Of a DNA stretch of 64,000 nucleotides, positions 4,351 to 31,151 are shown in pieces. The notes beneath the pieces were generated by a model that worked only from the letters and a program-made list of their open reading frames with translations, did no database searches and was not told where the DNA came from. The stretch spans positions 76,495-140,494 of the forward strand of contig CAVXNC010000024.1 of the NCBI GenBank assembly GCA_963762865.1. The letters run 5' to 3'. Both the position numbers and the translations under genes were made by a program. The DNA is from an uncultured Actinomycetota bacterium (GTDB lineage: Bacteria; Actinomycetota; Actinomycetes; JACCUZ01). Numbering within the stretch: the stretch's first letter is position 1; every line of letters starts with the position of its first letter.

Positions 4351-5220
4351 ATGGCGACCGCGGCGCAGTGGGTCGAGGGAGCGCGCCCGAGGACGCTGCC
4401 GGCGGCAGTGGCACCGGTGGCGGCCGGGACCGGCGCCGCGGCTGCGGCAGACGGCTTCCGGCTCGGGCCGGCGCTGCTCGCGCTGCTCGTCGCGCTGGCG
4501 CTGCAGGTGGGCGTCAACTACGCCAACGACTACAGCGACGGGGTGCGCGGGACCGATGCCGACCGGGTGGGGCCGTTGCGGCTCGTCGGGTCGGGGGTGG
4601 CGACACCGTCAGCGGTGAAGGCGGCTGCGCTTTCGGCCTTTGCGGTGGCGGGCGTGGCCGGGCTGGTGCTCGCGGCGTTGTCGTCGTGGTGGCTCGTCGC
4701 CGTCGGGGCAGCGTGCTTCGTCGCGGCATGGTTCTACACCGGCGGGCGGTCGCCCTACGGCTACCGAGGGCTCGGCGAGGTGTCGGTCTTCGTCTTCTTC
4801 GGGCTGGTCGCGACGGTCGGGACGACCTACGTGCAGCTGCTCGACGTGACGGTGGTGTCGGTGCTCGCCGGCATCGGCTGCGGGTCGCTCGCCTGCGCGC
4901 TGCTCGTGGCCAACAACCTTCGGGACCGGCCGAAGGACGAGGGCGTCGGCAAGCGGACACTGGCCGTGCGGCTCGGCGACCGCCGGACGCGGTTGCTCTA
5001 TGTCGGCCTGATGGTGCTGCCCTTCGTGCTGCTGCCGCAGATCGCGGCGTACTACGCGTGGGCGCTGCTGGCGCTTGGTGGCCGCCGCTGTTGCGGTGCC
5101 GCCGGCTTTGGCTGTCGGTCGCGGCGCCGCTGGGCGGGACCTCATCCCGGTGCTGAAGGCGACCGGGCTCACCCTGCTCGCCTACGGCGTCGTGCTCGGC
5201 GGAGCGCTCGCCCTGTCCTG
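4351..5220 (+). CDS. menA: 1,4-dihydroxy-2-naphthoate polyprenyltransferase, with an apparent 1-nt frameshift near 5083
   Basis: UbiA-family TM protein (NDYSDGVRGTD). After the ggtgg run near 5083 the conserved C-terminus ...VAAAVAVPP...GRDLIPVLKATGLTLLAYGVVLGGALALS* continues in the +1 frame and ends at 5220. Confidence 0.75.
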
Positions 5221-5299
5221 ACCGCCAGCCGCCGGGTGAGGCTCAGGCTTCTGCGACAGCCGCGATGGACACGGCGAGCACCCCGTTCGAGAACGGCAC

Positions 5300-5878
5300 C
5301 TACGTTGCGTCGCGCTCCGGGCGTGGCGCGCCGAGGGTGTCTCGATTCCTGTACAGGTCGCGGAGCAGGCTGATCTCGGCTCCGTGGTGGACCTGCTCGT
5401 CGATCACGGTGCGCCAGATGCGCTCGCAGGGCCAGTGGTCGCCCCAGTTCGTCAGCTTGGGTTCCGCGAGGTCAGCGTCGTCCAACTCCTGCACGACCGC
5501 CCGCAGGGGTTCCTGGCTCGCCCGCAGCCAATCGACCGCCGCTTCCGCGGACCCGGGCATCTCCAGGTCGTACGGCGCGGTCGCGGGCCCGAACGCGTAG
5601 TCGTAGTACCGGTAGTTCACTGCCGCGATATGCACGGTCCGCCACGCGATGGTCGTCACGGGGGCTGGTTGAGGATCCGGCACCACGTAGTCGATGACCC
5701 AGTCGCCACTGCCGTCGGCGCTCGCGGCCCGCGTCTCCGATCGTCGGTGCACGGTCCAGCATCCGGCGACTGGCTCCCAGAAGAACTCCTGGTCGCCGAT
5801 GGCGCTCAGCGTTTGTGTCAGTCGCTGGCATGACGCGTCGAATGAAGCCCGTAGGACATCGATCGCTGCAACCGCCAC
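5300..5878 (-). CDS. DinB/YfiT-like (mycothiol-dependent maleylpyruvate isomerase N-terminal-like) family protein
   Basis: 192 aa; WTV..HIAAV..HHGAEISLLRDLY is typical of DinB_2-fold proteins. Confidence 0.55.
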   Translation of the reverse strand: MAVAAIDVLRASFDASCQRLTQTLSAIGDQEFFWEPVAGCWTVHRRSETRAASADGSGDWVIDYVVPDPQPAPVTTIAWRTVHIAAVNYRYYDYAFGPATAPYDLEMPGSAEAAVDWLRASQEPLRAVVQELDDADLAEPKLTNWGDHWPCERIWRTVIDEQVHHGAEISLLRDLYRNRDTLGAPRPERDAT

Positions 5879-6077
5879 TCATCGAGGATGCCGCACATCC
5901 ACGCATGGGACCGCTCAGGAACGGCACCTACGGGCGGTCTCGCTGGGTCGAGAAGTGGTTGCCGCTGCGCCGAGCGACGAGTGGACGCGGCTAGACGCCT
6001 CGGCCCGCATCATCGGTTCGTCGGTCGTTCGATCAACTGGGTGAGGGGGACTCAATCGGAGTTGGTGCGGCGGATTC

Positions 6078-7338
6078 TCAATCGTCCGACGGAGCGAGCC
6101 AGGCCAGGGGTCGCTGTCCGCTGCCGCGGCTTGTGGTGAGGGGTTGCCCGTCCGAGGAGATCTCGGCGATGCCGGTTCCGCTGGTGACCGCGATGCGCGT
6201 CCCGTCCGGCGACCAGGCGAACCCGTGGGTGGCCGTGAAGTAGTCGTTGTAGGTGTCGTCGAACCGGTAGAGCGTCTGCGCCTCGCCCGACTCGACGTCG
6301 AGGGAGAGCAGTTTCGGCGACTCCGGTTGCCCGCGGTGGCAGTAGGTGGACGAGACCAGTCCCAGTCGCTCGCCGTCGGGGGACCAGGCCAGGTCGGTGA
6401 GAACCGGCGGCCACTCCAGCGGGCGCTGGGCGCGCTGCCGGTAGACCAGCTCCGGATCGCCACCGGCCCGGTCGAAGAGATAGACGGCGCCCTCATTCGG
6501 GCTGACCGCCCGTCGCGAGTCCCAGTTGCTGTCGCCGGGGCAGTCGGGCTCCGACGCGCCCGGGAAGGTGCTGACGGCGAGGCGGCTGCCGTCGGGGGAC
6601 CACTCGAGGTCGGAGATGCCCCGACCCTTCAGCACACCCGAGAGGTCGATCTCGTCGCGCAGCACCCCGTCGAACCCCCACACCTGGGCCGCGCGCGGCC
6701 TCTGCCCGCTGATCCCCAGAAAGACCGGTGCCGTGACCTCGTCCTGGCCCGGTCCGAACGAATGCATGAAGTTGCACTGATTGTCGCAGTGGATGGTGGC
6801 CACCGGCGCGTCCAGACCCGGCGCGAGCACGCGCATGGTGCGGACGCTTTCGGCCTGGGCCTCGTACCCCGCTGGTGTGCTCGGTTGGAGATCAGCCCGG
6901 CTCACGAAGGCCCCTGGCTGCGCGATGAAGAGGAACCGTCCGGTGTCCTGGTCGAAGGCCGACCAGGCCGGGAAGGACGCCGTGCCGATGTCGGGCAGCG
7001 ACAAAACCTCGTAGGACGGCGTCCCCCATCCGCCGCGTTCGCGGCCGTGGACGATGCCCCGGTTCGGGTTCGGGTTCGGGTTCGGGCTCGCGCTCGAGCT
7101 CGAGCTCGGGCTTCTCGACCGGTCCCCGGTCCACCGGCGGAGCGGCTCGGTCGGTTCCATCGAGCACCAGCGCGCCGGTCCCCACCACGGCGGCGACCAG
7201 GAGCGCGGCGCCTGCCACCCGGCTGGCAGTGCGGCGGTGGTGGGTCCGGCGCAGGCGGGCCAGGCCCGCCTCCACGTCGACCGGTGTCGCCGCCCGCAAG
7301 CCCCCGGCAGCGGCCGTTGCCCTGGTCTGGAGACTCAC
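6078..7338 (-). CDS. anti-sigma factor with a single TM helix, a Glu-Pro repeat linker and a C-terminal TolB-like beta-propeller; the frame changes near 7055
   Basis: The GTG at 7338 overlaps the sigma-gene stop (GTGA). The TM segment VAGAALLVAAVVGTGALVL is followed by the EKPELELEREPEPEPEPEPG linker. Removing one C from the cccc run at about 7054-7057 joins this directly to GIVHGRERGGW... and the WD40/TolB-like repeats (WSPDG x3) of the 6078..7160 ORF. Confidence 0.6.
7060..7110. repeat. hexanucleotide microsatellite (GGTTCG)4 followed by (GCTCGN) variants
   Basis: cggttcgggttcgggttcgggttcgggctcgcgctcgagctcgagctcggg encodes the PEPEPEPE/ELELE linker of the anti-sigma factor. Confidence 0.85.
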
Positions 7339-7856
7339 GGCAGGACCTCCTCGGCGGTCTGAGTGCGCTCGGGCCCGCCGGTCAGGTTCAGCTCCTGCAC
7401 GAGCCGGGCGCGCGCCCGCGACAGGTGCTGGCTGACCGATCCTTCGGTGATCTGCAGCGTCCGGGCGATGTCGGCGACGTCGAGCCCGTAGAGGTAGCGC
7501 AGCGCGGCGGCCTGCGCCTGTCGCTTCGGAAGCCGGCGCACGGCCGCCCAGAACGCGTCGTCGGCCGGCTCCAGGGCCGGAGGCTGCGGCCGGCTGGCGA
7601 GCCTAGTGCTCGCCCGCAGCTCCACCAGCTTGCGCCGGTACTGCGACACGGCCAGGTTGCCGCAGGTCCGCCGTACCCACGCCTCGGGGTGATCCAGGTC
7701 GCTGACGTGCCGCCACCGCCGGTACGCCGCCAGCATCGCCTCCTGCGCGACGTCCTCGGCCACCGCGGCCCCGCACAGAGCCCGCGCGAGCACCACCAGT
7801 CGCGGGAGCTCGGCACGGTAGAAGTCGTCGAACGGGAGCTGCGACCCGATCGACAT
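7335..7856 (-). CDS. ECF (sigma-70 family) RNA polymerase sigma factor
   Basis: Sigma-2 and sigma-4 regions are present (DVAQEAMLAAYRRWRH...; ALRYLYGLDVADIARTLQITEGSVSQHLSRARARL). The ATG at 7856 is preceded by GGAGGA. Confidence 0.85.
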   Translation of the reverse strand: MSIGSQLPFDDFYRAELPRLVVLARALCGAAVAEDVAQEAMLAAYRRWRHVSDLDHPEAWVRRTCGNLAVSQYRRKLVELRASTRLASRPQPPALEPADDAFWAAVRRLPKRQAQAAALRYLYGLDVADIARTLQITEGSVSQHLSRARARLVQELNLTGGPERTQTAEEVLP

Positions 7857-8111
7857 GGTGTCTCCTCCGACGGCCACTACCTCGGCCCGATCGCTCCACA
7901 CACCCTGAACTCGTTCAAGCTGCCCACCACGATGACAGCCGGGAGCAGAAATTCGGAGGAGAACCTCAGATACTCGAGCAGCGCGATGTGCGAGGCGAGC
8001 ACGGACTGGGGATGGGTCCGAGCACCCGCCACATAATGCCGGTTATGGCGCCTACCCGACGATTGCGCGGTCGGCCGACAGACTAGCGTTGGCGAGTCCG
8101 GAGGTCAGTGG

Positions 8112-9203
8112 ATGGGCGATCACACTCGGGTGAACGCGGCTGGCTACCTGAGCCGCAGGCGGTTTATCGGGCGGTGCGCGAGCGCAGCCGCAGGTTTGGC
8201 TGTGGCCGGCTGCCTAGCGGGCCGGGAGCCCCTTGGCAATCCAGGGCCGCGACTCGTTACCACCCTCGGCGACCTGGCACTACCAGACACGGGTGTCATC
8301 CTGCCTCACGAACACATTTTCTTGGCTGGTCCGAAGCAGGAACGGGTGCAGGTCGAGGACGTAGTCGAGGTGATGCAACCCGAGCTGAAGAATGCGCGCG
8401 CAGCCGGAGTTGCCGTGCTGGTCGACGCAGGTTCGCCGAGTCTCGGTCGCCGGGCCGACATCATCGTGGCGGTGTCACGGGCCGCGCGGCTGCCCGTGGT
8501 CGTGCCGACCGGCTTCTATCTCGACCCGTCGATACCTGAATGGGCGCGGGCCGCGAGCGAGGAGGAGTTGCGCGACTGGATGATCGGCGAACTGGTCGGT
8601 GGAATGGAAGGGACAGACGTGAAGGCGGGCTGGATCAAACTGGCGGCAAGCGACGGCGGACTCACTGAACAAGAGCGCAAGTGCCTGCGTGCCGCTGCCC
8701 GCGCGGGCGCAGCGACCGACTCAACCATCGGCTGCCACATCGAGAGCGGCATCGTGGCCCGCGACGCGCTGGATACCGTGGAAAGGTTGGGCTACCGACC
8801 CGAGCGCTTCGTCTGGATACACGCCGACCATGAACTCTTGTTCCACGCCGACCGTGAACGCGACTGGGGGTTGCGCGAGGAACTGGCACGCCGAGGGGCA
8901 TGGGTGGAGTTCGATAAGATCGGGTTCACTAAGCATGGGGGTGACGCGGCGTCTATCGACATGATGCACATCGACATGATTCAGCACATGCTCGACGCGG
9001 ATCTCGGTGACCGCCTCCTGCTCAGCATGGACAGCGGCTGGTACGACCCCGGCCGGCCCGACTGCCGGGCGGGTTGTATCGAGGGGTACACGTACCTCTC
9101 GAAGACTTTCCTGCCGAGGCTTAGTAAGACTGGGGTAGACGAGGCGACGATTGACAAGCTGACGCGGGAGAATCCGTTTCACGCATTCGCGCGACCCAGC
9201 TAG
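8112..9203 (+). CDS. phosphotriesterase-family (PTE/Php amidohydrolase) protein with a Tat signal peptide
   Basis: The N-terminus SRRRFIGRCASAAAGLAVAGCLA is a twin-arginine signal with a lipobox-like Cys. The LPHEHIF metal-binding motif and an amidohydrolase TIM barrel are present. Confidence 0.8.
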   Translation: MGDHTRVNAAGYLSRRRFIGRCASAAAGLAVAGCLAGREPLGNPGPRLVTTLGDLALPDTGVILPHEHIFLAGPKQERVQVEDVVEVMQPELKNARAAGVAVLVDAGSPSLGRRADIIVAVSRAARLPVVVPTGFYLDPSIPEWARAASEEELRDWMIGELVGGMEGTDVKAGWIKLAASDGGLTEQERKCLRAAARAGAATDSTIGCHIESGIVARDALDTVERLGYRPERFVWIHADHELLFHADRERDWGLREELARRGAWVEFDKIGFTKHGGDAASIDMMHIDMIQHMLDADLGDRLLLSMDSGWYDPGRPDCRAGCIEGYTYLSKTFLPRLSKTGVDEATIDKLTRENPFHAFARPS

Positions 9204-9420
9204 CGCCGACTGCCCGATCTGGGCGGTCGAACGGGTCGCCGAGTTTCGGGCGCGAGTCCCACAACCGGGGACACATCCCGATCTGCCGCTGACCGGATCG
9301 TGTCGGATCATGGCTCCGGCGACTTCGGGCCTCATGCCCAGCGTCGAGTAGTGCCGGTTCCGTGCGGTCGTGTCGGCCAACGAGCGGGTGCGCGGGAACG
9401 GCACACACCGGGCGGCGACC

Positions 9421-9564
9421 TCAGTGGTCGCCAGGGATGTTGCGGTTCGCCCGTGCATCACGGGGAGCCTCGTCGAGCCTGTAGGTCTCTCCCCGTCGCC
9501 GCAACACCAACCAGGCTCCGATCAAGAGCAGAGCGATGACCACAAGAATGACCACGACGCCCAT
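9421..9564 (-). CDS. putative small membrane protein (47 aa)
   Basis: MGVVVILVVIALLLIGAWLVLRRRGETYRL... is a TM helix followed by a charged tail. A GGAGGA Shine-Dalgarno sits 5 nt upstream of the ATG. The gene lies in a lower-GC intergenic stretch. No homology support. Confidence 0.3.
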   Translation of the reverse strand: MGVVVILVVIALLLIGAWLVLRRRGETYRLDEAPRDARANRNIPGDH

Positions 9565-9874
9565 CTCGTCCTCCGTCCGCTGCCAAGCACGCTGCAAGTC
9601 CAGTAGGCCTGGGCTCGTTGCTGGGAGGCAACCCTCAGCCCCTAGAAGTTGCGCACGGTTCCCGATAATGACGAACAATCGCCGGATATCGATCGCCGTG
9701 CCGCCTCGCTTTGTGTGACGTCGCGGAGCACATAGTGCAGGCTATGTTCGGCCGACCCAGCATCTGCGCCTGGGCCTTGATTCGACCCCCGGTCGGGCAT
9801 GGATCCGACCCAGCCGACAGGGTCGATGCAGGCGTCGCAAGGAAGCGGTCGCTCCCGTAGCAAATCGACCGGGG

Positions 9875-10312
9875 TCAGGTCTTGTTCAGCTCCTCGGCGA
9901 ACATCACGAGGATGCCGCTGGGGCCGCGGACGTAGGTGAGCTTGTAGACGTCTTGGTAGGTCGCGACGCCGCGCAGCGGGTGACAGCCGTGCCGCTCGGC
10001 GATCTCGAGGGCCTCGTCGATGTCGTCGACCGAGAAGGCGACGCGGTGCATGCCGATCTCGTTGGGTCGGGTGGGCTCGGTCTCGATCGCGTCAGGGTGG
10101 ATGTACTCGAAGAGCTCGAGGCGACCGTTGCCGTCCGGCGTCTGGAGCATGGCGATGTTGGCGTGGTTGCCGTCGAGCCCGACGGCGGTATCGGTCCACT
10201 CGCCGCTGACCGTGTCACGGCCGAGGACGGTCAGGCCGAGGTCGGTGAAGAAGGCGATCGTCGCTTCGAGGTCGCGCACGGCGATGCCGACGTTCTCCAG
10301 CTTGATGGGCAT
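9875..10312 (-). CDS. VOC (glyoxalase/bleomycin resistance/dioxygenase) family protein
   Basis: 145 aa reading MPIKLENVGIAVRDLEATIAFFTDLGL... The ORF-track start at 10660 is an over-extension. Confidence 0.75.
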   Translation of the reverse strand: MPIKLENVGIAVRDLEATIAFFTDLGLTVLGRDTVSGEWTDTAVGLDGNHANIAMLQTPDGNGRLELFEYIHPDAIETEPTRPNEIGMHRVAFSVDDIDEALEIAERHGCHPLRGVATYQDVYKLTYVRGPSGILVMFAEELNKT

Positions 10313-10498
10313 GCGTGCCACCGTACCGAGGCAAGGCACTTCGTCATGTTCCGTGGGTGACAGCTGCCACGACGCGACCAGGACGTCGGCGGCGACGGCG
10401 CCGACACGCGTCGATGGGCTTGCTGCACACCTGTGGATCTGATCTTGTTTGTGACTCCGCCTCAGGCGAGCCGCCGAGACCGTGACGGTCTCGATGGA

Positions 10499-11614
10499 AT
10501 GCCCAGACACGATCGGTACGGACCCGGGTTGAAGGCCATCCTGCTGAGCGGCACGTGCGCGCTCATGGTGTCGTTGTTCCTTACTCGCTGGGCGATCGCG
10601 CAGTTCGCCACCTGGGGCCTTGGGCAGCTGATCCGCGACGACGGCCCTAGGACCCATCACGTGAAGCGGGGTACCCCGACGATGGGCGGCGCCGCCATCG
10701 TGGTCTCGGTGGTTGTCGGCTATGCGTCCGCCAAGCTGTTGGCCTGGGACCCACCCTCCCGGTCCGCGCTCCTGGTGCTCTTTCTCCTGGTGGGCATGGC
10801 CGGGGTGGGATTCCTCGACGACTTCATCAAGGTCAGGAGGCAGCGCAGCCTCGGTCTCCGGAGCAAGGCGAAGGTGTTAGGACAGACCGTTGTCAGCCTC
10901 ACGTTCGGATTCCTAGCGCTCCACCCGCTGGGCGACGGGGCGGCAGCCGTTGTTTCGCACAGGCTTTCCCTCGGGCATGACTTCGGCCCGGCGTTGCCTT
11001 GGGTGATCGTCATGGCGCTCATCTGGGTCATGGTGAGCGGGACCAGCAACGCGACGAACCTCATCGACGGACTCGACGGGCTGCTCACAGGCAGTGCCAC
11101 GATGGTCTTCGGCGCGTACACCATCATCGGCATCTGGCAGAACAACCACTCGTGCGGATCCGTCGGCACGACCAACGGCTTGTGCTACCCAGTGGCTTCC
11201 CCGCTGGACCTGGCTACCGTCGCAGCCGCCCTGGCCGGCGCCTGCTTCGGGTTCCTGTGGTGGAACGCATCCCCGGCCAAGATCATCTTGGGGGACACCG
11301 GCTCCCTCGCCCTGGGGGCAGCCATGGCGGGGCTCGCACTGATGACCCGGACCGAGCTGCTCCTGATCGTCCTCGGCGGCTTGTACGTCGCCGTCACCGG
11401 GTCGGTGATGCTCCAGGTGTCCTGGTTCAAGCTGACCAGGCGCACCACCGGGGTGGGCAGGAGGATCTTCCGCATGGCGCCGCTCCAGCATCACTTCGAA
11501 CTGCTCGGCTGGGAGCAGGTCACGGTGGTGATCCGCTTCTGGATCATCGCGGGGATGTGCGCCGCGACTGGGCTCGGAATCTTCTACAGCGACTGGCTGG
11601 GAAGCCAGTCATAG
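10499..11614 (+). CDS. mraY: phospho-N-acetylmuramoyl-pentapeptide transferase (actinobacterial MurX/MraY type) located outside the dcw cluster
   Basis: MraY signatures HHVKRGTPTMGG, NATNLIDGLDGL and ILGDTGSLALG are present, plus the actinobacterial Cys-containing loop WQNNHSCGSVGTTNGLCYP. The flanking genes (VOC, SigJ) are not the mur/fts dcw genes that normally surround mraY. Confidence 0.85.
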   Translation: MPRHDRYGPGLKAILLSGTCALMVSLFLTRWAIAQFATWGLGQLIRDDGPRTHHVKRGTPTMGGAAIVVSVVVGYASAKLLAWDPPSRSALLVLFLLVGMAGVGFLDDFIKVRRQRSLGLRSKAKVLGQTVVSLTFGFLALHPLGDGAAAVVSHRLSLGHDFGPALPWVIVMALIWVMVSGTSNATNLIDGLDGLLTGSATMVFGAYTIIGIWQNNHSCGSVGTTNGLCYPVASPLDLATVAAALAGACFGFLWWNASPAKIILGDTGSLALGAAMAGLALMTRTELLLIVLGGLYVAVTGSVMLQVSWFKLTRRTTGVGRRIFRMAPLQHHFELLGWEQVTVVIRFWIIAGMCAATGLGIFYSDWLGSQS

Positions 11615-11655
11615 AGCCACCCGAACGTCGACATGATGCCGATCGCCGCGTCAGG

Positions 11656-12591
11656 TCAGTTCGTCATGTCCCGCCACGGACGGCGGACCTGGTTCGCCTC
11701 GCGGTTGACCGCCCACGCATCCGCGACCGGTCCGACGTGCCCGAGCTTGTCGGGGTTCAGCACCGAGCGGATCGTCTGGATCTGCCCGTCGAGCACGTCG
11801 ATGGCCCAGGTCGTCAGCACCCCGCCGTCGCGGTCGCGGAAGATCGCGCCGGGCTGACCGTTGACCTCGTGCCGCTCGAAGACGACACCGATGCGCTGGA
11901 ACGGGTCGCTCATCGCCGCCAGGACGCGGGCCACGTTGTCCCCGCCGATGATGCCCCTGGCCCACTGCGGTGCCTTGCCGCCGCCGTCGCCGACCATCTG
12001 GGCGTCGGCGGCAAGCAGCTCCCGCAGCCCGTCGACGTCGCCCTCCTTGAAGGCGTCGAAGAACCGCTCGGCGAGCTCGTCCCGTTCTCGCCGGTCTGCC
12101 TCGAAACGCGGCCGACCGTCGTCCATGTGCCGGCGTGCCCGCACGGCGAGCTGACGACAGGCGGCCTCCGACCGGCCCACCGCAGCGGCGACCTCCGGGA
12201 AGCTGAACCCGAACACCTCCCGCAGCACGAAGACCGCCCGCTCGAGCGGGCTGAGCCGCTCGAGCAGCAGCAGGGCGGCCATGGACACCGAGTCGGCCAG
12301 CTCCGCCGAGCGCTCCGGGTCCTCGTAGGGGTCGGTGAGCAGCGGCTCGGGGAACCACTCACCGACGTACGCCTCCCGCCGCACCCTGGCCGAGCGCAGC
12401 ACGTCGATCGAGATCCGGGTCACCACGGCCGAGAGGAAGGCCTTGGTCGACGTGGGTGTCGTCCCGGAGGCTTCGTAGCGGAGCCAGGTCTCCTGGACCG
12501 CGTCCTCCGCCTCGGTCACGCTGCCCATCAGTCGATAGGCGATCGAGAACAGCAGCGGACGCAGCTCCTCGAACTGCTCGGCCTTGGTCAC
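11656..12591 (-). CDS. ECF sigma factor, SigJ-like (sigma-70 regions 2 and 4 plus a C-terminal SnoaL-like domain)
   Basis: VTKAEQFEELRPLLFSIAYRLMGSVTEAEDAVQETWLRY resembles mycobacterial SigJ. The GTG at 12591 forms a GTGA overlap with the upstream stop. Confidence 0.8.
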   Translation of the reverse strand: MTKAEQFEELRPLLFSIAYRLMGSVTEAEDAVQETWLRYEASGTTPTSTKAFLSAVVTRISIDVLRSARVRREAYVGEWFPEPLLTDPYEDPERSAELADSVSMAALLLLERLSPLERAVFVLREVFGFSFPEVAAAVGRSEAACRQLAVRARRHMDDGRPRFEADRRERDELAERFFDAFKEGDVDGLRELLAADAQMVGDGGGKAPQWARGIIGGDNVARVLAAMSDPFQRIGVVFERHEVNGQPGAIFRDRDGGVLTTWAIDVLDGQIQTIRSVLNPDKLGHVGPVADAWAVNREANQVRRPWRDMTN

Positions 12592-13514: not shown

Positions 13515-13598
13515 CACCTTCCTGTGTCGGTTGTCTCTCTCGGACTTGAGACGAGACAGCCGCGCGGGCTGTGACATGCACGCGGAGAGTCGCGCGGA

Positions 13599-14120: not shown

Positions 14121-14132
14121 GCTCAGCAGAGG

Positions 14133-16531: not shown

Positions 16532-16536
16532 CCGAA

Positions 16537-17213: not shown

Positions 17214-17284
17214 CCCGGCCATGGCGCCAGCGGGCACGGCCCGCGCAAGGCACGTAGGCTGACCAGCGGAGGGATGCTCACCCC

Positions 17285-18454: not shown

Positions 18455-18587
18455 CGCCGCCAGCGTGCACGATCCGCCCGGCAACGTGCTGTCGCAGGCA
18501 GGAACCAGGGCGAATCGGGACGTGAGGAGTCAGGCGTTGAGGTGCCGACCACAAGAGACCACCATGAAGGTCGACGAGGAGGCAGAC

Positions 18588-19001: not shown

Positions 19002-19088
19002 CAGCGGCTCCACTCCGGGTTGGTCCGCACTGCGCTGTGGGCCCGGGTACTCATTGCCATCTGCCGCTGCGGAGCCCAGGCTCCGGGC

Positions 19089-19481: not shown

Positions 19482-19597
19482 CGGCGACCTGCTTGTCGCC
19501 GCGGCTGGACTCTCGCCGTCGCGCCACTGACCGCCAGCCATATGTGCGTCGCGTCGATCGCCGCCCCTCTGTACCTTGTCGCCGGTGGGAGCTCACG

Positions 19598-20818
19598 ATC
19601 GCGTTGGTTCCCGAGAACCTGGTCCTGCGGACGATCCGGCCGGAGGAGATCGATCAGGCCGCGGAGCTCCTCGAGGAACGCGGCGAGCCAGCAGACGGTG
19701 AGGACCTGCGCCTCGTCCTGGACGACAGGGACGCCGGTCTGCCCGGTACCGCCGTCGTGGTCGACGGTGACCGTGTCGTCGCCACCGCCTCCCTGCTGGA
19801 CGAGCAGCTCGACCTCTGCGGGCACGCCATACCCGCTGGCCAGGTCGAGCTCGTCGCCACGGCAGCAAGCCACGAGGGGCGCGGCCTCGCCCGGGCACTG
19901 ATGCAGTGGTGCCACGACCGCTCGGCGGCAAGGGGCCACCTCGCTCAGGTCATGATCGGGATCCCGAACTTCTACCGGAGGTTCGGGTACTCCTACGCGA
20001 TGCCGATCCCGCGGGTCCACTCGCTGACCGGTTCCGTCGAGGCACCGGCGGGCATCACAGTCCGACGGGCGACGACGGCCGACATCACGGTCATGGCGGA
20101 GCTCCAGGACGTCGAACAGCGCACGGCCGACCTCCGGATGCCGCACTCGGACGGCTGTTGGCGGTGGCTGGTCGCCCGCTCGGGCAGCGAGCAGTGGGTG
20201 GCCGAGCGGGACGGCGAGGTGATCGCCGTCGGACGAGCGTTGCCCGAGGAAGGCGTCCTGGGCGAAGTGGCGGCCACCGACCCGGCCGGGGCGGTCGCCG
20301 TCCTGGCTCACGCGGCGGAGGCTGCGCGGGTCGCCGGGCATCCGTTGTCCGTGCAGCCGCGAGGGCGCGGATGTGCCCACGACGCGATGGCGCCGTACCT
20401 CGACCAGGGCACGCTGCCCGAGTGGTACTACGCCCGGGTCCCGGACCTGGCAGCGCTGCTCGAGCGCCTCGGGCCCCTGCTCGCCGCGAGGCTGCGGGAC
20501 TCCGGGCTCGGATCCTCCGGCGGCACCGGCGGCGAGCATCAGGTCCTGCTGTCCACGTACGCCGAGCAGGTGCGCTTCACGGTCGGCGCCGGCGGAGTCG
20601 CCGGGATGCAGCGCGGCGGCCGCGAGCAGGCTCCCGTGAGCAAGGGCGGCTCGGGTCTCGCCGCAGAAGATGTCCCGGGGCTCATCCTCGGACCGCACGG
20701 TGCGCTCGGGCTCGAGGAGCGAGCGCCGGACTGCCATCTAGGGCGGCAGCGCGAGCTGATGGCAGCGCTCTTCCCGCCGGTGACCTCCGACCTGCTCACC
20801 TTCTACCTGGCCGTCTGA
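19598..20818 (+). CDS. Eis-like GNAT acetyltransferase (GNAT domains plus a C-terminal SCP2-like region)
   Basis: ~400 aa architecture with HEGRGLARALMQWCHDR and MIGIPNFYRRFGYSY, typical of the enhanced-intracellular-survival / aminoglycoside acetyltransferase family. The start is uncertain. Confidence 0.65.
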   Translation: MALVPENLVLRTIRPEEIDQAAELLEERGEPADGEDLRLVLDDRDAGLPGTAVVVDGDRVVATASLLDEQLDLCGHAIPAGQVELVATAASHEGRGLARALMQWCHDRSAARGHLAQVMIGIPNFYRRFGYSYAMPIPRVHSLTGSVEAPAGITVRRATTADITVMAELQDVEQRTADLRMPHSDGCWRWLVARSGSEQWVAERDGEVIAVGRALPEEGVLGEVAATDPAGAVAVLAHAAEAARVAGHPLSVQPRGRGCAHDAMAPYLDQGTLPEWYYARVPDLAALLERLGPLLAARLRDSGLGSSGGTGGEHQVLLSTYAEQVRFTVGAGGVAGMQRGGREQAPVSKGGSGLAAEDVPGLILGPHGALGLEERAPDCHLGRQRELMAALFPPVTSDLLTFYLAV

Positions 20819-21977
20819 CCTCCCGGGCGCGCCGCGTCCTTCAGTGCCCGCACCAGGTCGTGGATGCTCTCGAAGCTGTCGGCGTTGGCCTGGACCGCGA
20901 CGACGACACCGGTGTCGGGGAAGGCGACCAGCCGCACCACGTGGGACGTCTCCATCCCGCCATGGCCGACCGCACCGGGGGTGTCGTACTCGTCCCAAGG
21001 CGAGAAGTCGAGGGTCCCCAGGCCGTAGGACTCACCCCGGAAGTCGGTCATCTCGCGGAGCGAGGCGTCTGCGACCACGAACCCGCCGTACAGGTCGTAG
21101 CCCCAGCGGGCCAGGGTCGCGGCGTCTGTCTCGATGTTCCAACCGTCGGCAGCCATGGCGTCCTTGACGCGGTACAGGATCCCGCCGAGGCCGGGATGAC
21201 TCAGGACGCCTGCCCGAACCACCTTCGCCAGCGGCCGGCCCGTGACCTGCTCGATGATCTCCCCGAGCAAGAGGTAGTTGATGTTCGCGTACTGAGTGGT
21301 CGACCCCGCCGGGGACGATGGGCGGTGGGATCAGCTCCACCAGATCGGCAGTGGTGTACCCCTGGTCCACGAGCTCGACGTAGCCGTCCGGGTCGACGAG
21401 CCCGCTGCGCATCCCGAGCAGGTCCCGGATGCTGGCACCGTTCGCGTCGAACGACGAGAGCTCGGGCGGAAAGTAGTCGGCCGCCGGGACGTCCAGTGGG
21501 ACGGTCCCATCTTCGACCAGGCTCAGGACCTGGGCCGCCGTCATCGTCTTGCCCACACTGGCCGTGAGGAGCGGGGAGTCGGGCATCAGGGAGCTGCCCT
21601 GCCTGTCTACCCCCGCGGCTCCCGACCAGCTCCCTGAGCCGACGACGATGACCGCAGCGGCGACCCCGCGGAGCGTGCCTTCCGCAACCGCCTCGTCGAG
21701 CAGCTCCTGGAACGAGGCGGCCAACGTGTCCGGAAGGCGGCCACTGCGGGAACTCCGGGAAGTCGCCGAGCTCGGCGGTCCAGGTCCGGGAAGCGGGCCG
21801 AGCCGTCTGCGTGGCCTCGTCGGAGGTCGGCTTGACCGTCGCCTGGTCTGCTCCGACCGAGGAGGTGCAGGCGGCGAGCAACGACAGGGTCACTGTCGCC
21901 ACAAGTGTCCGCAGTGCGGCTGACAGTGTCACGGTCGTCTCCGATCGGCGCGCAACCACGGGCTGGGAGACCGACAA
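20803..21977 (-). pseudogene. secreted class-C beta-lactamase-like serine hydrolase (lipoprotein), split over three frames
   Basis: The lipoprotein signal (LSLLAACTSS) is in one frame, the S-x-x-K active site (TASVGKTM) in a second, and the C-terminal ...NINYLLLGEIIEQVTG... in a third. At least two single-base indels at G/C runs (about 21300 and 21750) cause the splits. Confidence 0.6.
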
Positions 21978-22221
21978 CAGGACGATGCCCGCCGAACAGC
22001 GACTCCTAGGAGTTCAACGCCTCGAGGGTGTGCCGAGGTTCGGTCGTCGCGGCCTTCGGTCGACCGCTGCCGTCGCCATCCCGCCCTGGTCGGCTCACAT
22101 CACCCAGAACGGACGAGGTGCCCTGGTTTGACGGGGCCTAGCGTCCGACGAGCCTGGAGTGCGATCCCGAAGTGACTCGGTCTGCACAGTTCGGGCGTTC
22201 CCTAGGCCCTGGGAGGCACCG

Positions 22222-22770
22222 ATGGCGGCATCCGTGACGGGATCGTCACAGCCTGGCTTGAGTGTCGGTCCGACCAGTGAGTTCAGCTTGTTCTTCCACG
22301 TGAAGCCCGGTCAGGGACCGTCGTTGCGGAGCGCGCTCCTGGCCCTGCAGGACACTCCTGGGTACCGGCCCGGCGACTACGGGATGGCTGTCCAGACCAT
22401 TCACGAGGCGCGCTTCGTCCTCTTCGACGACGACACCCGGCTCGCGTTCATCACCAGCTTCGACGGGCCATGGGACGCCTACATGGAGGACTTCTTCTCC
22501 TCCGGGCCGACTCTCGCGCTCTTTGACGTCATCTTCCGCCACGTGGACGGCTACGACGGGCTGCCGGACCTGGCCGCCCTCAGGGCGTTCATCCTGGATG
22601 CCGAGCAGACGGCAGGTGCGTACGCCCGCAACTATGGCGGCACCGTCAAGGAGATCCGGAAGGCCCAGCGCGTGAACGCGGCCTTCCAGCAGGTTCTCGA
22701 CCATCCGGAAGCGGCCGAGGTCCTCGAGCATCCAGCGATGCAGCCGCTGCTCGACGAGGCCGGCGACTAG
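22222..22770 (+). CDS. hypothetical protein (182 aa)
   Basis: Clean ORF with GGGAGG Shine-Dalgarno 5 nt upstream. No family recognised. Confidence 0.55.
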   Translation: MAASVTGSSQPGLSVGPTSEFSLFFHVKPGQGPSLRSALLALQDTPGYRPGDYGMAVQTIHEARFVLFDDDTRLAFITSFDGPWDAYMEDFFSSGPTLALFDVIFRHVDGYDGLPDLAALRAFILDAEQTAGAYARNYGGTVKEIRKAQRVNAAFQQVLDHPEAAEVLEHPAMQPLLDEAGD

Positions 22771-22800
22771 GACGGGCGGCAGGACCGGGAGCGACGTCCG

Positions 22801-23928
22801 ATGTCGGACCACATCTCTGGGCCGCGCGCCCTTGCCGACCCGATCGCGGACATCACCGACGTGTACGCGTTCCCCAGCCCTGAGGGGGCGGATCGCCTCG
22901 TGCTCGTCGTGAACACGCTTCCGATGGCCAAGCCCTCCGACCTGTTCTCGGGCGGGCTGGTCTACCGATTCAGGCTGCGTCCGCTCACCCGGGCGACGAC
23001 CGACGGTCCCGGGTGGCAGTTCGTCCCCGCCGACGAGGAGCACGTCCTCGACTGCGTGTTCTCCACGCCCGATCCCGCCGCTGACGCGCCTGTCCAGGAA
23101 GGCACCTGCACGTCCCCGACCGGAGAGACGGTGTCGTTCCGCGTGAACGACCCGCAGGGCGGTTCCGGTGCCGGCATCCGCGTATTCGCCGGCACCCGGT
23201 GGGATCCGTTCATCATGGATGCACGTGCCGCCTTGACCACGCTCGCGACACACGAGCTGGCTTTCACCGACCCCGGCTCGATCTTCCTGGACGGCAAGAA
23301 CGTGCTGAGTGTCGTCATCGAGCTGGACACGCGGGGGCTGGGTGGCGGCCTCGTGGGTGTCGTCGCGGAGACGCTGACGCGAGGGAACTTCAACGTTCGG
23401 ATCGAGCGCGTCGGAAGGCCCGAGGTGAAGAACATGATGCTCGCACCGAAGGAGTTCGACCGGGTGAACCGGGACCTGGAGATCCGTGACTTGTACAACA
23501 TGGAGGACGCGTTCCACCCCGGCGGCACCTACGGCGGCGCCTACCGCGCGCGTTTGAACGCCAACCTTGCCTTCTGGGACGGCCTGGACGGGAAGGTGGA
23601 CTGGCCAACGGACGAGGACGGCAACCACCCGTTGACAGACCTGGTCCTAGCCGACTTTCTCGTCGTCGACGTCACGAAGCCCTACCTCGAGCGGGGCTCG
23701 TTCCTCGAGATCGAACTCGCGGCCCGACGCGGTCAGCCGCACCAGACGTGCGGGGGACGGACGTTGAACGACGACGTGATGGACACCATCTTCACCCAGC
23801 TCGTCAACGCCGGACATGGCCCCACCATCCGGGACGGCGTCGACTCCGCCACCCGGCCGGCCAGCGGCACGTTCCCCTACCTGGCGCCGCCTAACCCGCA
23901 CCCGCCCGAGCCGCCGGAGCACCACTAG
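22801..23928 (+). CDS. DUF4331-family protein
   Basis: The N-terminal motif SGPRALADPIADITDVYAFPSPE matches the conserved DUF4331 start (DPxADxTDlYAF). Confidence 0.65.
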   Translation: MSDHISGPRALADPIADITDVYAFPSPEGADRLVLVVNTLPMAKPSDLFSGGLVYRFRLRPLTRATTDGPGWQFVPADEEHVLDCVFSTPDPAADAPVQEGTCTSPTGETVSFRVNDPQGGSGAGIRVFAGTRWDPFIMDARAALTTLATHELAFTDPGSIFLDGKNVLSVVIELDTRGLGGGLVGVVAETLTRGNFNVRIERVGRPEVKNMMLAPKEFDRVNRDLEIRDLYNMEDAFHPGGTYGGAYRARLNANLAFWDGLDGKVDWPTDEDGNHPLTDLVLADFLVVDVTKPYLERGSFLEIELAARRGQPHQTCGGRTLNDDVMDTIFTQLVNAGHGPTIRDGVDSATRPASGTFPYLAPPNPHPPEPPEHH

Positions 23929-23950
23929 TGACGGAAGGCACCTGAACGCC

Positions 23951-25291
23951 ATGCCCGAGGCGACTCATTCCGATCTTGAGCTCGACGACATCCAGGCCGG
24001 TGCGCTGTTCGAGCGACCCTCGCCCTACGTCGGCAAGTACCTGATGCTGCGCATCGTGGACCGTGCCGACGGCCGCGAGCTGGTCCGGCGACTGCATCGG
24101 GTCGCCAGCTCCTCGAGGACGTCGAGCAGCGGGAACGACACATCTCTCACCGTGGCGTTCACCTACAGGGGTCTCGAGGCGCTGGGTGTCCCGCAGACGT
24201 CACTGGACACCTTCGCGCCGGAGTTCCGTGAAGGGATGAAAGCGCGCGCCGCGCTGCTGGGAGATGTGGGTGAGAGCAGTCCCGAGCACTGGGAGCCGCC
24301 GTTCGGGAGTGCCGACGTGCACGTGGCCATCGCGGTTCTCGCGCCTGACGCTGCTCGGCTGGAGGAGGCCGCTGAGAAGGCACGCCAGGCACACACCGAG
24401 CTACCGGGAGTTGAGGTGATCTGGCGGCAGGACTGCTACCAGCTCGCCACCGGACGGACCTCGTTCGGTTTCAAGGACGGCATCGGCCAGCCCGCTGTCG
24501 AAGGAAGCGGTAGGCCGTCCACGAATTCCCGCGAGCCACCTCTGAAGGCCGGCGAGATCATCCTGGGCTACCCCGACGAGACCGGCGAACTACCGCCGAT
24601 GCCGACGCCGGAGGTCCTGGGTCGCAACGGAACCTACGTCGTCTTCCGGAAGCTGCACACCAAGGTCGCGACCTACCGACGCTACCTGCGCGACCGGGCG
24701 GCGAGCCGTGAGGAGGAGGACCTCCTCGGCGCGAAGATGGTCGGGCGCTGGCAGAGCGGCGCTCCGCTCGCCGTTGCACCGGACCACGATGACCCCGAGC
24801 TGGGTGCCGATGCCCGGCGCAACAACGACTTCGTCTTCGGCGACGACCCCCGCGGGTTCAAGTGCCCGGTGGGCGCCCACGCCCGGCGGGCGAACCCGCG
24901 CGACGCCATGGACCAGGACGGCAGCGTGGACGTCCGGCTTCACCGGATGATCCGGCGCGGAACGAGCTATGGCCCCGCTCTGCCCCAGGGCGCCCTCGAG
25001 GACGACGGCGCCGACCGCGGGATCATCTTCGTGTTCGCCGGGGCGCACCTCAAGCGCCAGTTCGAGTTCGTCAAGACCCAGTGGCTGAACGACGGCATCT
25101 TCATCGGGGCACCACTCGAGAAGGACCCCCTCGTCGGACCGAACGACGAGTCGAGCAGCTTCACGATCCCCCAGCGCCCGATCCGACGAAAGCTGCAGAA
25201 CCTGCCGCCATTCGTGGTGACGCGGGGCGGGGAGTACTGCTTCGCGCCTGGTCTGACGGCCATGCGCTGGCTGGCCGAGCTGGACACATGA
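23951..25291 (+). CDS. Dyp-type (dye-decolorizing) heme peroxidase
   Basis: Full-length DyP with the GxxDG region FGFKDGIGQP and the proximal His region. No signal peptide. Confidence 0.85.
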   Translation: MPEATHSDLELDDIQAGALFERPSPYVGKYLMLRIVDRADGRELVRRLHRVASSSRTSSSGNDTSLTVAFTYRGLEALGVPQTSLDTFAPEFREGMKARAALLGDVGESSPEHWEPPFGSADVHVAIAVLAPDAARLEEAAEKARQAHTELPGVEVIWRQDCYQLATGRTSFGFKDGIGQPAVEGSGRPSTNSREPPLKAGEIILGYPDETGELPPMPTPEVLGRNGTYVVFRKLHTKVATYRRYLRDRAASREEEDLLGAKMVGRWQSGAPLAVAPDHDDPELGADARRNNDFVFGDDPRGFKCPVGAHARRANPRDAMDQDGSVDVRLHRMIRRGTSYGPALPQGALEDDGADRGIIFVFAGAHLKRQFEFVKTQWLNDGIFIGAPLEKDPLVGPNDESSSFTIPQRPIRRKLQNLPPFVVTRGGEYCFAPGLTAMRWLAELDT

Positions 25292-25319
25292 ACGGCCGGC
25301 ACCGACCAGAGAGGAACGC

Positions 25320-26187
25320 GTGGCGATGAGCTCATCCGGCACCGATCGATGGGCGGCCCTGGACTTCGGGCCGCCCCCTCCAGATGTCGTCGAGACCGAG
25401 GCTCCCGTGCTCCTCGACTACCTCGCCGATGGCCAGGTGGCGCTGGTCACGCTCAACCGACCGCATGCCGACAACGCGATCACAACAGAGATGGGCGCCC
25501 TCCTGACCGAGGTCGTGGAGACGATCGCGGTGCGTACCGCCGTCCGGGTGGTGGTCCTGACCGGAGCCGGCGAACGCGCCTTCTCCGTCGGCAGCGACCT
25601 ACGACAGCGCAAGAGCATGACCAAGGAGGACTGGCTGCGGCAGCGCCAGGCCTTCGACCGCACCCTCTACACCGTGCGTCAGCTGCGCAAGCCCATCTTC
25701 GCCGCCGTCAACGGCATCGCGTACGGCGGCGGGTGCGAGCTGGCCCAGAGCACTGACTTCATCATCGCGTCCGACACGGCCACGTTCGGCCAACCCGAAG
25801 CCATGCTCGGACTTGCCGCCGGCGGCGGCTCACCAGCCTTGCTGCCGCGCCTGCTGCCGCCGCGGCAAGGCCTTGCAGATGCTCATGACCGGCGACCCGA
25901 TTCCTGCTCACGAGGCCTACCGCCTCGGCATGGTCAACGAGATCCATCCCCCCGGCGACCTGATGCCGGCCGCCCGGCGCATCGCAGACAAGATCGCAAG
26001 CAACTCACCGACGGCGGTGCAGTCGGTGAAGCGCGCCGCTCAGCTGGGCGAAGGGCAGCCGATCGAGCAGGCGATCGCCATCATGATGGACGCCCACTGG
26101 CGATCGGCTGTCCACCCCGACCGCGTCGAGGGCATAGGAGCCTTCAACGACGGCCGCGACCCGAGCTTCGACGATGCCGACTTCTGA
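25320..26187 (+). CDS. enoyl-CoA hydratase/isomerase (crotonase), with an apparent 1-nt frameshift near 25845
   Basis: The N-terminal 170 aa (FAAVNGIAYGGGCELA) are in frame 1. The conserved C-terminus GKALQMLMTGDPIPAHEAYRLGMVNEI... is in the +1 frame (ORF 25813..26187). Deleting one C in ccgccgcgg restores LPRLLPRGKA. Confidence 0.7.
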
Positions 26188-26237
26188 GGCGGGAGCGCCC
26201 CGCGTCCAGAAGACCCACCGAGAGAAGGACTGAGACC

Positions 26238-27318
26238 ATGACCGTCGCCGGCGACCTCGAGTCGGAACGCGCCGCACTTCAGATGATCAATCCCGCTCCC
26301 TACAACGCCGAGGCTCCGCCTCAGGCCCTGGTCGGAGACATCACCCCCACGGAGCTTCACTACGTCCGCAGCAACTTCGCATTGCCCACTCATGACGGCA
26401 CCTTGGGCATCGGCGGCGCCGTGGGAAACCCCACGACCCTCAGCCTCGATGATCTACGCGCGCTGCCGGCCCACGATCAGGCGGTCACGCTGGAATGTGC
26501 GGGGAACGGACGCCTCGACATGAGACCGCTTCCGACCGGTGAGCCGTGGGGCGACTACGCGGTTTCGACGGCACGCTGGACCGGCGCCCGGCTCAGCGAC
26601 GTACTCGCCCTGGCCCAGCCAGGCACGGAGGGGGTTGACGTCCGGTTCGAAGGGGCCGATCACGGCCCGTACCACCTCCAGGCGATCCTCCCGGAGACCA
26701 ATCAGGCCGACCTCACCTTCGTCCGCGCGTTGCCCCTCGCCGAGGCAGCCGATCCGTCCTCGGCGATCCTGATCGCCTACCAGATGAACGGCGAGCCGCT
26801 GACCCCCGATCACGGCGCCCCGTTCCGGCTCATCGTGCCGCACTGGTACGCCGTCGCCTCGGTGAAGTGGCTGAGGCGGATCGACGTCCTCACCGAGCCC
26901 TACGCCGGCGAGTTCCAGACCGGCCACTACATCTACCAATGGCCGGACCGTCCCCACGAGGCCGTGCGCCTCATGCGCGTGCGTGCCCGCATCACCGACC
27001 CCGCTCCCGGGGCCGTCCTCCCCCTCGGGCCGCTACACAGTTCGAGGAAAGGCGTGGTCAGGCACCGGGCCCGTCACGCAGGTCGACATCAGCCTCACCG
27101 GCGAAGGTGACTGGCACCCGGCGCAGCTGGACCCGCCGAACGGTCCCTACCAGTGGCAGGACTGGTCATTCGTCTGGGACAGCAACGGCGTCGGACGTCA
27201 CACCCTGCGCGCCAGGGCGACCGACGCCGCCGGCAACGTGCAGCCCGACGTCCCACCTTGGAACCGGTTGGGCTACGGGAACAACGCCATCGAAGTCATG
27301 TACGTCGACCGGCACTGA
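26238..27318 (+). CDS. sulfite-oxidase-family molybdopterin oxidoreductase (SorA/YedY-like), with an apparent 1-nt frameshift near 27035
   Basis: The Moco-binding domain (LECAGNGR, FRLIVPHWY) is followed by the Moco-dimerisation Ig domain in another frame (ORF 26983..27318). A C5 run at about 27031-27035, if reduced to C4, gives the continuous ...AVLPSGRYTVRGKAWSG.... Confidence 0.7.
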
Positions 27319-27390
27319 TCGCCGGGGCGTGCAACCGTCCCCGACAAGTCGTTGGACCCGCGGCGGGGGACCGTGCCAGGGTCGGCGGGA

Positions 27391-28137
27391 TGTCTTCTGA
27401 GCTGCCCGATCATTTCGCCGGAGCGATCGCCGAGCGGTACGACGCGGGGTCGCCGGAGATGTTCGAGCCGGAGGTGCTCGGGCCGACGGTCGACCTACTA
27501 GCCGAGCTGGCCGGATCCGGGCCGGCGCTCGAGCTCGCGATCGGCACCGGTCGCGTCGCCCTCCCGCTCCATGAGCGGGGCGTCGACTCTCTTCGGGATC
27601 GACCTGTCGGCCGACATGGTCGCGCAGCTGCGCGCCAAACCGGGCGGCGCGGACATCGAGGTCACCGTCGGCGACCTCGCCGCCGCGACCGTCGGGCCGA
27701 AGGGCGACTTCACCCTCGCGTACCTGGTCTTCAACACCATCGGCAACCTGACGACGCAGGACGCGCAGGTGGCCGCGTTCCAGAACGCCGCCGCGCACCT
27801 CAGGGTCGGAGGGACGTTCGTCATCGAGACCGGTGTGCCCGACCTGCAGCGACTGCCAGCGGGCCAGACCGACGTCGTCTTCCACCGCGACGCCGACCAC
27901 GTCGGCATCGACGAGTACGACGTCGTCACCCAGTGGATGGCGTCCCACCACTACAGCCGGGTCGGCGACCACTACGAGCTGGTATCGGTGCCGTTCCGCT
28001 ACGTGTGGCCCTCCGAGCTCGACCTGATGGCGCGCATCGCCGGCCTGCGGCTGCGCGACCGGTGGGCCGGCTGGTCCAAGGAACCATTCACCGCCGATAG
28101 CCGCTCGCACGTCTCGGTGTGGGAGAAGACCGGCTAG
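27391..28137 (+). CDS. SAM-dependent methyltransferase, with an apparent frameshift near 27590
   Basis: The N-terminus MSSELPDHFAGAIAERYDAG..LELAIGTGRVALPLHERGVD is in one frame and ...LFGIDLSADMVAQL... (ORF 27571..28137) in another. Confidence 0.55.
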
Positions 28138-31148: not shown

Positions 31149-31151
31149 CGC

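Follow-up and report, generated by a model that had tools for sequence, protein, structure and literature searches.

Frame breaks in six genes of an actinobacterial metagenome contig are best explained as consensus indel errors

The window analysed here, a stretch of 64,000 nucleotides from a contig of an uncultured Actinomycetota bacterium, includes two accessory blocks and a long region of core genes (Table 1). The limits of the blocks were established from the synteny with the related loci L010, L003 and L039. In the window the reading frame is broken seven times in six genes, given that the gene encoding the serine hydrolase is interrupted at two sites (site 1 and site 2).

Table 1. Genes with frame breaks, accessory blocks and core control region of the window
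Feature	Position	Strand	Observation
menA (1,4-dihydroxy-2-naphthoate polyprenyltransferase)	4351..5221	+	+1 within 5075-5086, CTTGGTGGCCGC, runs ≤2
Anti-sigma-like membrane protein, C-terminal beta-propeller	6078..7338	-	break at CCCC 7057-7060, +1 or -2
Lipoprotein serine hydrolase, beta-lactamase/DD-peptidase family	20803..21932	-	two +1 breaks: ~21743; within 21304-21322
Enoyl-CoA hydratase (crotonase)	25326..26187	+	one extra base within 25857-25865
Sulfite-oxidase-family molybdopterin oxidoreductase	26238..27318	+	one extra base, CCGC 27030-27033
Class I SAM-dependent methyltransferase	27390..28137	+	one extra base within 27588-27594 (TCTCTTC)
Accessory block 1	5300..15600		absent between menA and ccsB in short-read relative L010; holds the anti-sigma break
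Accessory block 2	17700..28140		absent from the menA-ccsB interval in L010; holds 5/7 breaks
Control region, core genes	28135..64000		ccsB, resB, ccdA, hemL, hemB, cobA-hemD, hemC, hemA, rex, others

The breaks were detected by a codon-usage Viterbi segmentation over the six frames combined with a stop-codon test. Frame switches on the same strand without a stop codon were found at 7086/7087, 21294/5, 21742/3, 25862/3, 26999/27000 and 27587/8, and in menA the coding signal was lost at 5073. In three-frame translations the conserved protein picks up again in the next frame at every break. When intact orthologues from other assemblies were compared with the raw window by tblastn, pairs of HSPs in different frames abutted at each break (5075-5079, 7078-7124, ~21744, 21321-21323, 25861-25874, 27001-27032 and 27584-27595). 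Correction by one base yielded a full-length protein at all seven sites, and in the corrected products the Pfam domains Beta-lactamase (PF00144, residues 74-353, spanning site 2 of the hydrolase), ECH_1 (37-283, junction at residue 179 of the crotonase), Mo-co_dimer (243-350, residue 264 of the oxidase) and Methyltransf_25 (47-141, residue 66 of the methyltransferase) run across the junctions. An earlier sequence-only reading of this DNA had proposed that at least seven genes are frameshifted, that the downstream protein resumes in a neighbouring frame, and that changing one base restores it. The segmentation and the HSP pairs confirm that the breaks are real, but the affected genes are six and the events seven; the other two statements agree with the translations, the tblastn results and the full-length family matches of the corrected proteins. 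The direction of the shift is identical (+1) in the seven events (two-sided sign test, p ~0.016). In-frame stops, larger deletions and IS insertions were absent from the six genes, each of which carries one or two lesions of 1 nt.

The corrected MenA matches the model NF004751 over 1-288 of 289 with 388 bits (cutoff 264), and aligns without gaps with MenA of L002, L003 and L010; the two HSPs of this gene lie at 4351-5079 (frame 1) and 5075-5218 (frame 2), and its best match among the GTDB representatives shows 75% identity. To our knowledge, menA provides the only route to menaquinone, and actinobacteria have no other respiratory quinone; for this reason, a truncated menA would be implausible in a bacterium that lives freely in soil. 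The GTG start of the anti-sigma gene, at 7338, overlaps the stop of an ECF sigma factor gene (7335-7901). Once corrected, the protein is covered over 95-100% of its length by the homologues P0074-P0084; P0073, a database protein, is identical to the truncated ORF 6078..7160. The break adjoins a tandem array of hexamers (repeats at 7061-7112) inside a variable linker, and at this site the DNA of the relatives L162, L163 and L164 reads CCGGGTGGCATC and that of the window CCGGGGCATC. Judging from this comparison, the event may be a loss of two bases rather than a gain of one, and the view that all the events are single-base insertions is weakened by the compatibility of this site with a 2-nt loss relative to the relatives' DNA.

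The hydrolase carries the motifs SxxK and YxN, and its HSPs fall in three frames; its homologues (~375 aa) align with 94-99% coverage and are free of gaps at both junctions (FPQGRLPD and PAGSTTQYAN). The homologue alignment moved both of the positions considered at the outset: site 1, placed at W-P-L-P-D, was reassigned to an extra T at 21743 (CAG[T]GGC on the coding strand), and site 2, placed in the GGGG at 21304-7, was reassigned to ~21319-21322, with the HSP boundary at 21321-21323 and an interval of 21304-21322. At the crotonase site a DNA alignment with 12 relatives shows CTGCCGCCGCGGC in the window and CTGCC-CCGCGGC in the relatives, and at the oxidase site the relatives read PLG(P/A/T)(Y/H)TVRGKAWSG. 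The methyltransferase homologue of L002 is unbroken and of the same length (ERGVPVTGIELS vs ERGVDLFGIDLS). Synonymous and nonsynonymous codon differences stood at 34:12 before and 14:6 after the break for the crotonase (compared with L082), and 69:32 and 18:10, respectively, for the oxidase (compared with L085), from which purifying selection looks the same on both sides of the breaks.

The crotonase and oxidase genes read through without a change of frame in ~75 soil contigs from JGI short-read assemblies (71-96% amino-acid identity), and compared with these they are split only in the window and in L001, a Flye-style contig. L001 is the nearest long-read relative (88% nucleotide identity; the closest by protein sequence is L082, with 94% amino-acid identity), and has only 22208-27331 in common with the window; an assembly from the species itself was not found. 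In these shared 5 kb, L001 is intact at the crotonase and oxidase sites of the window and has extra bases of its own elsewhere, at four coding positions, which argues that the breaks were not inherited. The frame-break detector returned 7 breaks in 23 kb of the window vs 13 in ~70 isolate or short-read loci (~1 Mb), an excess over chance; it found 8 over 22 kb in L001, 11 over 21 kb in L003, a locus from a Microflora Danica MAG where ccsB, resB and ccdA are among the broken genes, and 3 in a MAG locus labelled '.ont.'. The shifts of L003 go in both directions (five +1 and six -1), indicating that a bias towards +1 is not universal among the long-read relatives. In addition, the public proteins P0001, P0002, P0003, P0007, P0012 and P0014 of relatives are read-throughs fused by frameshifts that involve DyP, crotonase and oxidase; they were retrieved with a concatenated crotonase, oxidase and methyltransferase query whose matches were all at least 494 aa long, and orthologues of normal length were missed by it.

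In GTDB the nearest relatives are MAGs built from Nanopore reads alone. These Microflora Danica MAGs were assembled with Flye (--meta --nano-hq) and one round of Medaka without short-read polishing (PMC12313526). The window resembles such Nanopore-only Flye and Medaka assemblies (PMC12313526) in its isolated 1-nt indels that split conserved genes, in a density of breaks that varies between and within contigs while the short-read relatives are free of them, and in the read-through 'fusion' proteins deposited in databases. It differs from the textbook Nanopore errors, which concentrate in long homopolymers and are usually deletion-biased, given that in the window the runs are of 4 bases or fewer, most of the extra bases do not extend a homopolymer and all the shifts go in one direction.

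The sequence-only reading had placed every break at a run of 3-5 identical bases, and this is not borne out: just two or three of the seven sites touch a run of at least 3, which is the level expected by chance. Guided by the orthologues, the extra base falls in runs of 2 or fewer in menA, hydrolase site 1, the crotonase and the methyltransferase, and in the oxidase it sits in CCGC; several of the extra bases do not extend a homopolymer at all. A clear contact with a run of at least 3 is seen only at the CCCC of the anti-sigma gene (7057-7060) and at hydrolase site 2 (21304-22). Random intervals of 6-10 nt in the 64-kb window touch such a run in 28-40% of cases (40% for 10 nt), and against this expectation the break sites show no homopolymer enrichment. 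The longest homopolymer has 6 bases in the whole window and at most 4 at the break sites. The example that had been offered, a CCCCC at 27031-27035, actually lies at 27020-27024, and the relatives keep the residues P-L-G after this run. In DNA with 72% G+C, the proximity of a short homopolymer is not diagnostic. The absence of the classical homopolymer signature, the non-uniform clustering of the breaks and the mixed shift directions of L003 are observations that count against an artefact.

The breaks are unevenly distributed along the window. The earlier rate of one event per 5-9 kb, taken as uniform, does not describe this distribution: all seven breaks are confined to 22.5 kb, the remaining ~40 kb being free of them, and seven points drawn uniformly over 64 kb would span 22.5 kb or less with a probability of ~0.009. 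Six are located in the accessory blocks and the seventh, that of menA, at ~200 nt from the edge of block 1. In block 1 the G+C content is lower (0.65-0.71) and the other genes are full length; the 2 kb at 7887-9877, non-coding by the codon model and considered for a time as a degraded region, hold a full-length phosphotriesterase gene. In the control region no frame breaks were detected, each change of frame coinciding with a stop codon; eight of its genes match NCBIfam models from end to end in one frame, and the comparison with L010 gives single HSPs. Six of the breaks lie in accessory genes, the commonest place for real pseudogenes too, which should be counted against an artefact.

This distribution would be in line with recent frameshift pseudogenes, produced by real one-base insertions in accessory blocks under relaxed selection: all the events but one are located in strain-variable blocks of lower G+C, the core genes on either side are intact, and the array of hexamers that the anti-sigma break abuts could slip in vivo. 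As in decaying genomes such as that of Mycobacterium leprae, frameshifts interrupt conserved genes; however, decay of this type brings stops, deletions, IS elements, relaxed selection and loss of synteny, whereas the window shows one type of lesion in genes with preserved selection and intact orthologues. Roughly one in four of the blocks' genes would have been broken, all by this one type of lesion and without a single nonsense mutation, deletion or IS insertion, and the synonymous to nonsynonymous ratio downstream of the breaks is unchanged. Moreover, ~75 relatives have conserved the DyP-crotonase-oxidase cluster in intact form, menA is hit as well, similar breaks occur in essential core genes of the long-read relatives, and the breaks are insertions, whereas bacterial mutation is generally deletion-biased. 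On this balance, we consider genuine pseudogenes unlikely. It is quite unlikely that a burst of real insertions, all in the same direction, affected the two accessory blocks and the adjoining end of menA; if the insertions were real, they would point to a localised insertion-prone mutational process or to a recently silenced genomic island.

A mixture, in which most of the breaks are artefacts and one or two are real strain variants or phase-variable sites, would fit best at the anti-sigma gene, whose site departs from the others in a possible 2-nt change in a G run beside the 6-nt array of a variable linker. Nevertheless, this site is not statistically distinct, and slippage in an array with a period of 6 nt would preserve the frame, so a mixture appears very unlikely. 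Expression of the genes by programmed +1 ribosomal frameshifting or by transcriptional slippage seems extremely improbable. The common +1 direction of the seven shifts is the only feature shared with prfB/RF2, where frameshifting depends on a conserved site, an in-frame stop, a stimulatory element and a shift conserved in the orthologues, none of which is present in the window: the orthologues are unshifted at every site, and an in-frame stop was found at none of the seven. A search for a motif common to the seven sites, including methylation-like motifs, gave nothing significant; CCGCC is present at four of them (nominal p ~0.02), which fails correction for multiple testing, and the 9-mer GTGGCCGCC occurs at two break sites and at eight unbroken places elsewhere. 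Transcriptional slippage needs tracts of ~9 nt or more, and the runs at these sites, of 4 bases or fewer, are far below that length.

We conclude that the seven breaks are probably (roughly 85%, on comparative sequence evidence) consensus indel errors in a long-read metagenome contig, and that the genes would be intact in the organism. This interpretation rests on the ~75 unbroken short-read orthologues, on the breaks of L001, which are not shared with the window, and on the Nanopore MAGs broken in core genes, together with the single type of lesion, the unchanged synonymous to nonsynonymous ratio and the identical direction of the seven shifts, which speaks for one systematic process. The earlier attribution to sequencing or assembly error instead of pseudogenes is therefore the best supported conclusion by the comparative evidence, although the homopolymer argument on which it was based fails. 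Among the platforms then named, Nanopore is likely that of this contig, as judged from its relatives and from the exact match to P0073, which is encoded on an NCBI+ENA contig of 212,030 bp. The contig would most likely derive from Nanopore reads only, assembled with Flye and subjected to one polishing round; six of the breaks would be a spurious extra base, and that of the anti-sigma gene a base gained or two bases lost. The errors would be short-context insertions called from few or conflicting reads, and not miscalls of homopolymer length. In a mixed population the strain-variable blocks (5.3-15.6 kb and 17.7-28.1 kb) would be supported by fewer or more heterogeneous reads than the core flanks, which would account for the clustering of the errors; from this clustering we infer that read support is locally poor at the breaks.

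The breaks are thus almost certainly a hazard for annotation rather than a feature of the biology. With ordinary gene callers the six genes will come out split or fused; P0073, a truncated product of this contig itself, has already entered public protein collections, and the relatives add to the databases spurious 'DyP-crotonase' and 'crotonase-oxidase' fusions (P0001-P0014). The window also illustrates that the density of errors inside one contig can track the boundary between core and accessory regions. The MAGs of this lineage would mislead anyone who took them as evidence of pseudogenisation, of a lost menaquinone synthesis or of novel domain fusions.

The G+C content of the window is 72% and long spurious ORFs therefore occur in every frame; for this reason, a codon-usage model trained on the window was combined with a six-frame Viterbi segmentation. 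For each change of frame on the same strand, we looked for a stop codon closing the upstream frame at that point. All such junctions in 1-4300 and 28000-64000 have this stop codon; in 7-27.6 kb it is missing from six, and the coding signal of menA ends at 5073 with its frame open as far as 5373. The resulting list coincides exactly with that of the sequence-only reading, which had announced at least seven affected genes; it represents seven events in six genes. At each break the three-frame translations indicate that the adjacent frame carries on the conserved protein, and on the raw window, with no reconstruction, intact orthologues align as abutting HSPs in neighbouring frames. Other lesions are absent from the six genes.

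Positions of the frame breaks in the window
Gene	HSP abutment	Extra base or site	Run of at least 3	Placement
menA	5075-79	5075-5086 (CTTGGTGGCCGC)	no	orthologue-guided
anti-sigma/beta-propeller	7078-7124	CCCC, 7057-60	yes	orthologue-guided
serine hydrolase, site 2	21321-23	21304-22	yes	orthologue-guided
serine hydrolase, site 1	~21744	T in CAG[T]GGC, 21743	no	homologues read FPQGRLPD
crotonase	25861-74	25857-25865 (CTGCCGCCGCGGC)	no	CTGCC-CCGCGGC in 12 relatives
sulfite-oxidase-family (oxidase)	27001-32	27030-27033 (CCGC)	only adjacent GGG	P-L-G kept after C run in relatives
methyltransferase	27584-95	27588-27594 (TCTCTTC)	no	orthologue-guided

Deletion of one base per site yields proteins with end-to-end family matches. 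Corrected MenA aligns with NF004751 over 1-288 of 289 (388 bits), and matches to Beta-lactamase (74-353), ECH_1 (37-283), Mo-co_dimer (243-350) and Methyltransf_25 (47-141) cross the junctions of the corrected hydrolase, crotonase, oxidase and methyltransferase. Pfam matches fail to span two junctions, those of the anti-sigma gene and hydrolase site 1, both of which are confirmed by homologues: the corrected anti-sigma protein is covered to 95-100% by homologues of 383-405 aa, and the hydrolase to 94-99% by hydrolases of ~375 aa, gap-free at both junctions. The truncated ORF 6078..7160 is identical to P0073, a protein in public collections encoded by the window's own contig (212,030 bp, NCBI and ENA); thus, at least the anti-sigma break is present in the deposited assembly.

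All the breaks had been ascribed to homopolymers. Runs of at least three bases hold 12% of the window, where the longest homopolymer is 6, and a random 10-nt interval meets such a run in 40% of cases; the association is therefore no better than chance. The 'ccccc' reported at 27031-35 is actually at 27020-27024 and cannot be the oxidase site; in relatives P-L-G follows it. The shift is +1 at the seven sites. At six of them homologue lengths are equal, which denotes a gain of one base; relatives have CCGGGTGGCATC at the anti-sigma site versus CCGGGGCATC here, so that a loss of two bases is just as possible there as a gain of one. It is improbable that one or two sites are real among artefacts; the anti-sigma site would be the most plausible one. 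The 9-mer GTGGCCGCC (coding orientation) is common to the breaks at 5078-5086 (plus strand) and 21736-21744 (minus strand); the window has 10 copies versus 3.5 expected, eight of them without a break, and given the many pairwise comparisons we judge this sharing compatible with chance. Comparison of the seven sites revealed no motif common to all; this, the shift sites without a stop codon, the unshifted orthologues and the lack of a long tract make programmed frameshifting or transcriptional slippage hardly credible.

The anti-sigma gene (minus strand, 6078-7338) includes hexanucleotide tandem arrays (GGTTCG x5, TCGAGC x5) at 7061-7112, whose edge adjoins the frame break; the linker of (E/L)(P/E) repeats that they encode exceeds that of P0074-P0077, the closest homologues, by ~12 residues. 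The GTG start of the anti-sigma gene, preceded by a GAGGAGG ribosome-binding site, shares bases with the TGA stop of the ECF sigma gene (GTGA, 7335-7338), a classic layout for translational coupling.

The seven events lie within 22.5 kb of the 64-kb window (probability ~0.009 under uniform placement, from the range distribution). In 28-42 kb, eight core genes (CcsB, HemL, HemB, CobA/HemD, HemC, HemA, Rex and an acyl-CoA ligase) each give an end-to-end NCBIfam match in a single frame, and the unbroken genes of 5.3-20.8 kb are also full length. In L010, a short-read MAG contig of a relative, menA and ccsB lie 3.8 kb from each other, with only homologues of window 15.6-17.7 kb between them; hence 5.3-15.6 kb (5300-15600) and 17.7-28.1 kb (17700-28140) are two accessory blocks of ~10 kb, flanking a conserved glyoxalase-MarR-AsnC-PLDc_N core at 15.6-17.7 kb. 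The blocks have lower G+C; six breaks fall inside them and that of menA ~200 nt from the edge of the first. Read support is probably thinner or more mixed in these strain-variable blocks, which would worsen the consensus there; the location of the breaks is also the main point that favours real decay of accessory genes. Real pseudogenes are nonetheless unlikely: the single lesion type and the preserved selection do not fit, menA is hit, and the DyP-crotonase-oxidase cluster is conserved. Synonymous versus nonsynonymous codon differences are alike upstream and downstream of the breaks.

The order DUF4331, DyP peroxidase, crotonase, sulfite-oxidase-family gene (22801-27318) is kept in dozens of soil metagenome contigs (loci L082-L161, 71-96% identity). 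The stretch 7887-9877 (G+C 0.65) was called non-coding by the codon-usage model; it contains a full-length phosphotriesterase-family ORF (8112-9203, plus strand; PF02126, 5-297 of 298), whose atypical composition suggests recent horizontal acquisition. The minus strand of 28135-42485 carries a conserved actinobacterial cluster, intact and with all genes co-oriented (ccsB, resB, ccdA, thioredoxin-like, histidine phosphatase, hemL, hemB, cobA/hemD, hemC, hemA, rex, glutaredoxin-like and acyl-CoA ligase genes).

The argument for an artefact is comparative. JGI metagenomes scanned with the intact DyP peroxidase gave 80 short-read contigs of relatives; crotonase and oxidase are single-frame in every contig that reaches them (~75, 71-96% identity). 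The nearest DNA relative, L001 (ENA ERZ25039494 contig_7644, a Flye-style name; 88% identity over 22208-27331), shows no break at the two window sites that fall in this stretch. At four other coding positions of the stretch it has extra bases of its own, with its oxidase split across three frames; the breaks are thus independent, not inherited. The frame-break detection used for the window, when applied to 85 high-G+C loci, found 8 breaks in 22 kb of L001, 11 in 21 kb of the Microflora Danica MAG locus L003, 3 in one '.ont.' MAG locus, and 13 in total in ~70 isolate or short-read loci. This behaviour of the long-read relatives also speaks against real pseudogenes. In L003 (MFD02581.bin.2.29, contig_12613) the ccsB, resB and ccdA homologues (16.4-20.8 kb) are each split over 2-3 frames, and +1 and -1 breaks are about equally mixed, unlike the window. 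By menA, the nearest relatives in GTDB are 'MFD…bin' MAGs; these were assembled from Nanopore data with Flye --meta --nano-hq, followed by a single round of Medaka polishing and none with short reads (PMC12313526). Public proteins of relatives include frameshift read-throughs, of an out-of-frame DyP C-terminus into crotonase and of crotonase into oxidase (P0001, P0002, P0003, P0007, P0012 and P0014).

From these comparisons of sequences, we consider that the breaks are probably (about 0.85) an assembly artefact of a familiar type, a consensus indel error, and not a biological feature. The breaks reported earlier are real and their attribution to sequencing error holds; the homopolymer signature does not. 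In practice, gene calling here should be frameshift-aware, as was recommended, and database proteins from the lineage of this contig should be taken with caution.
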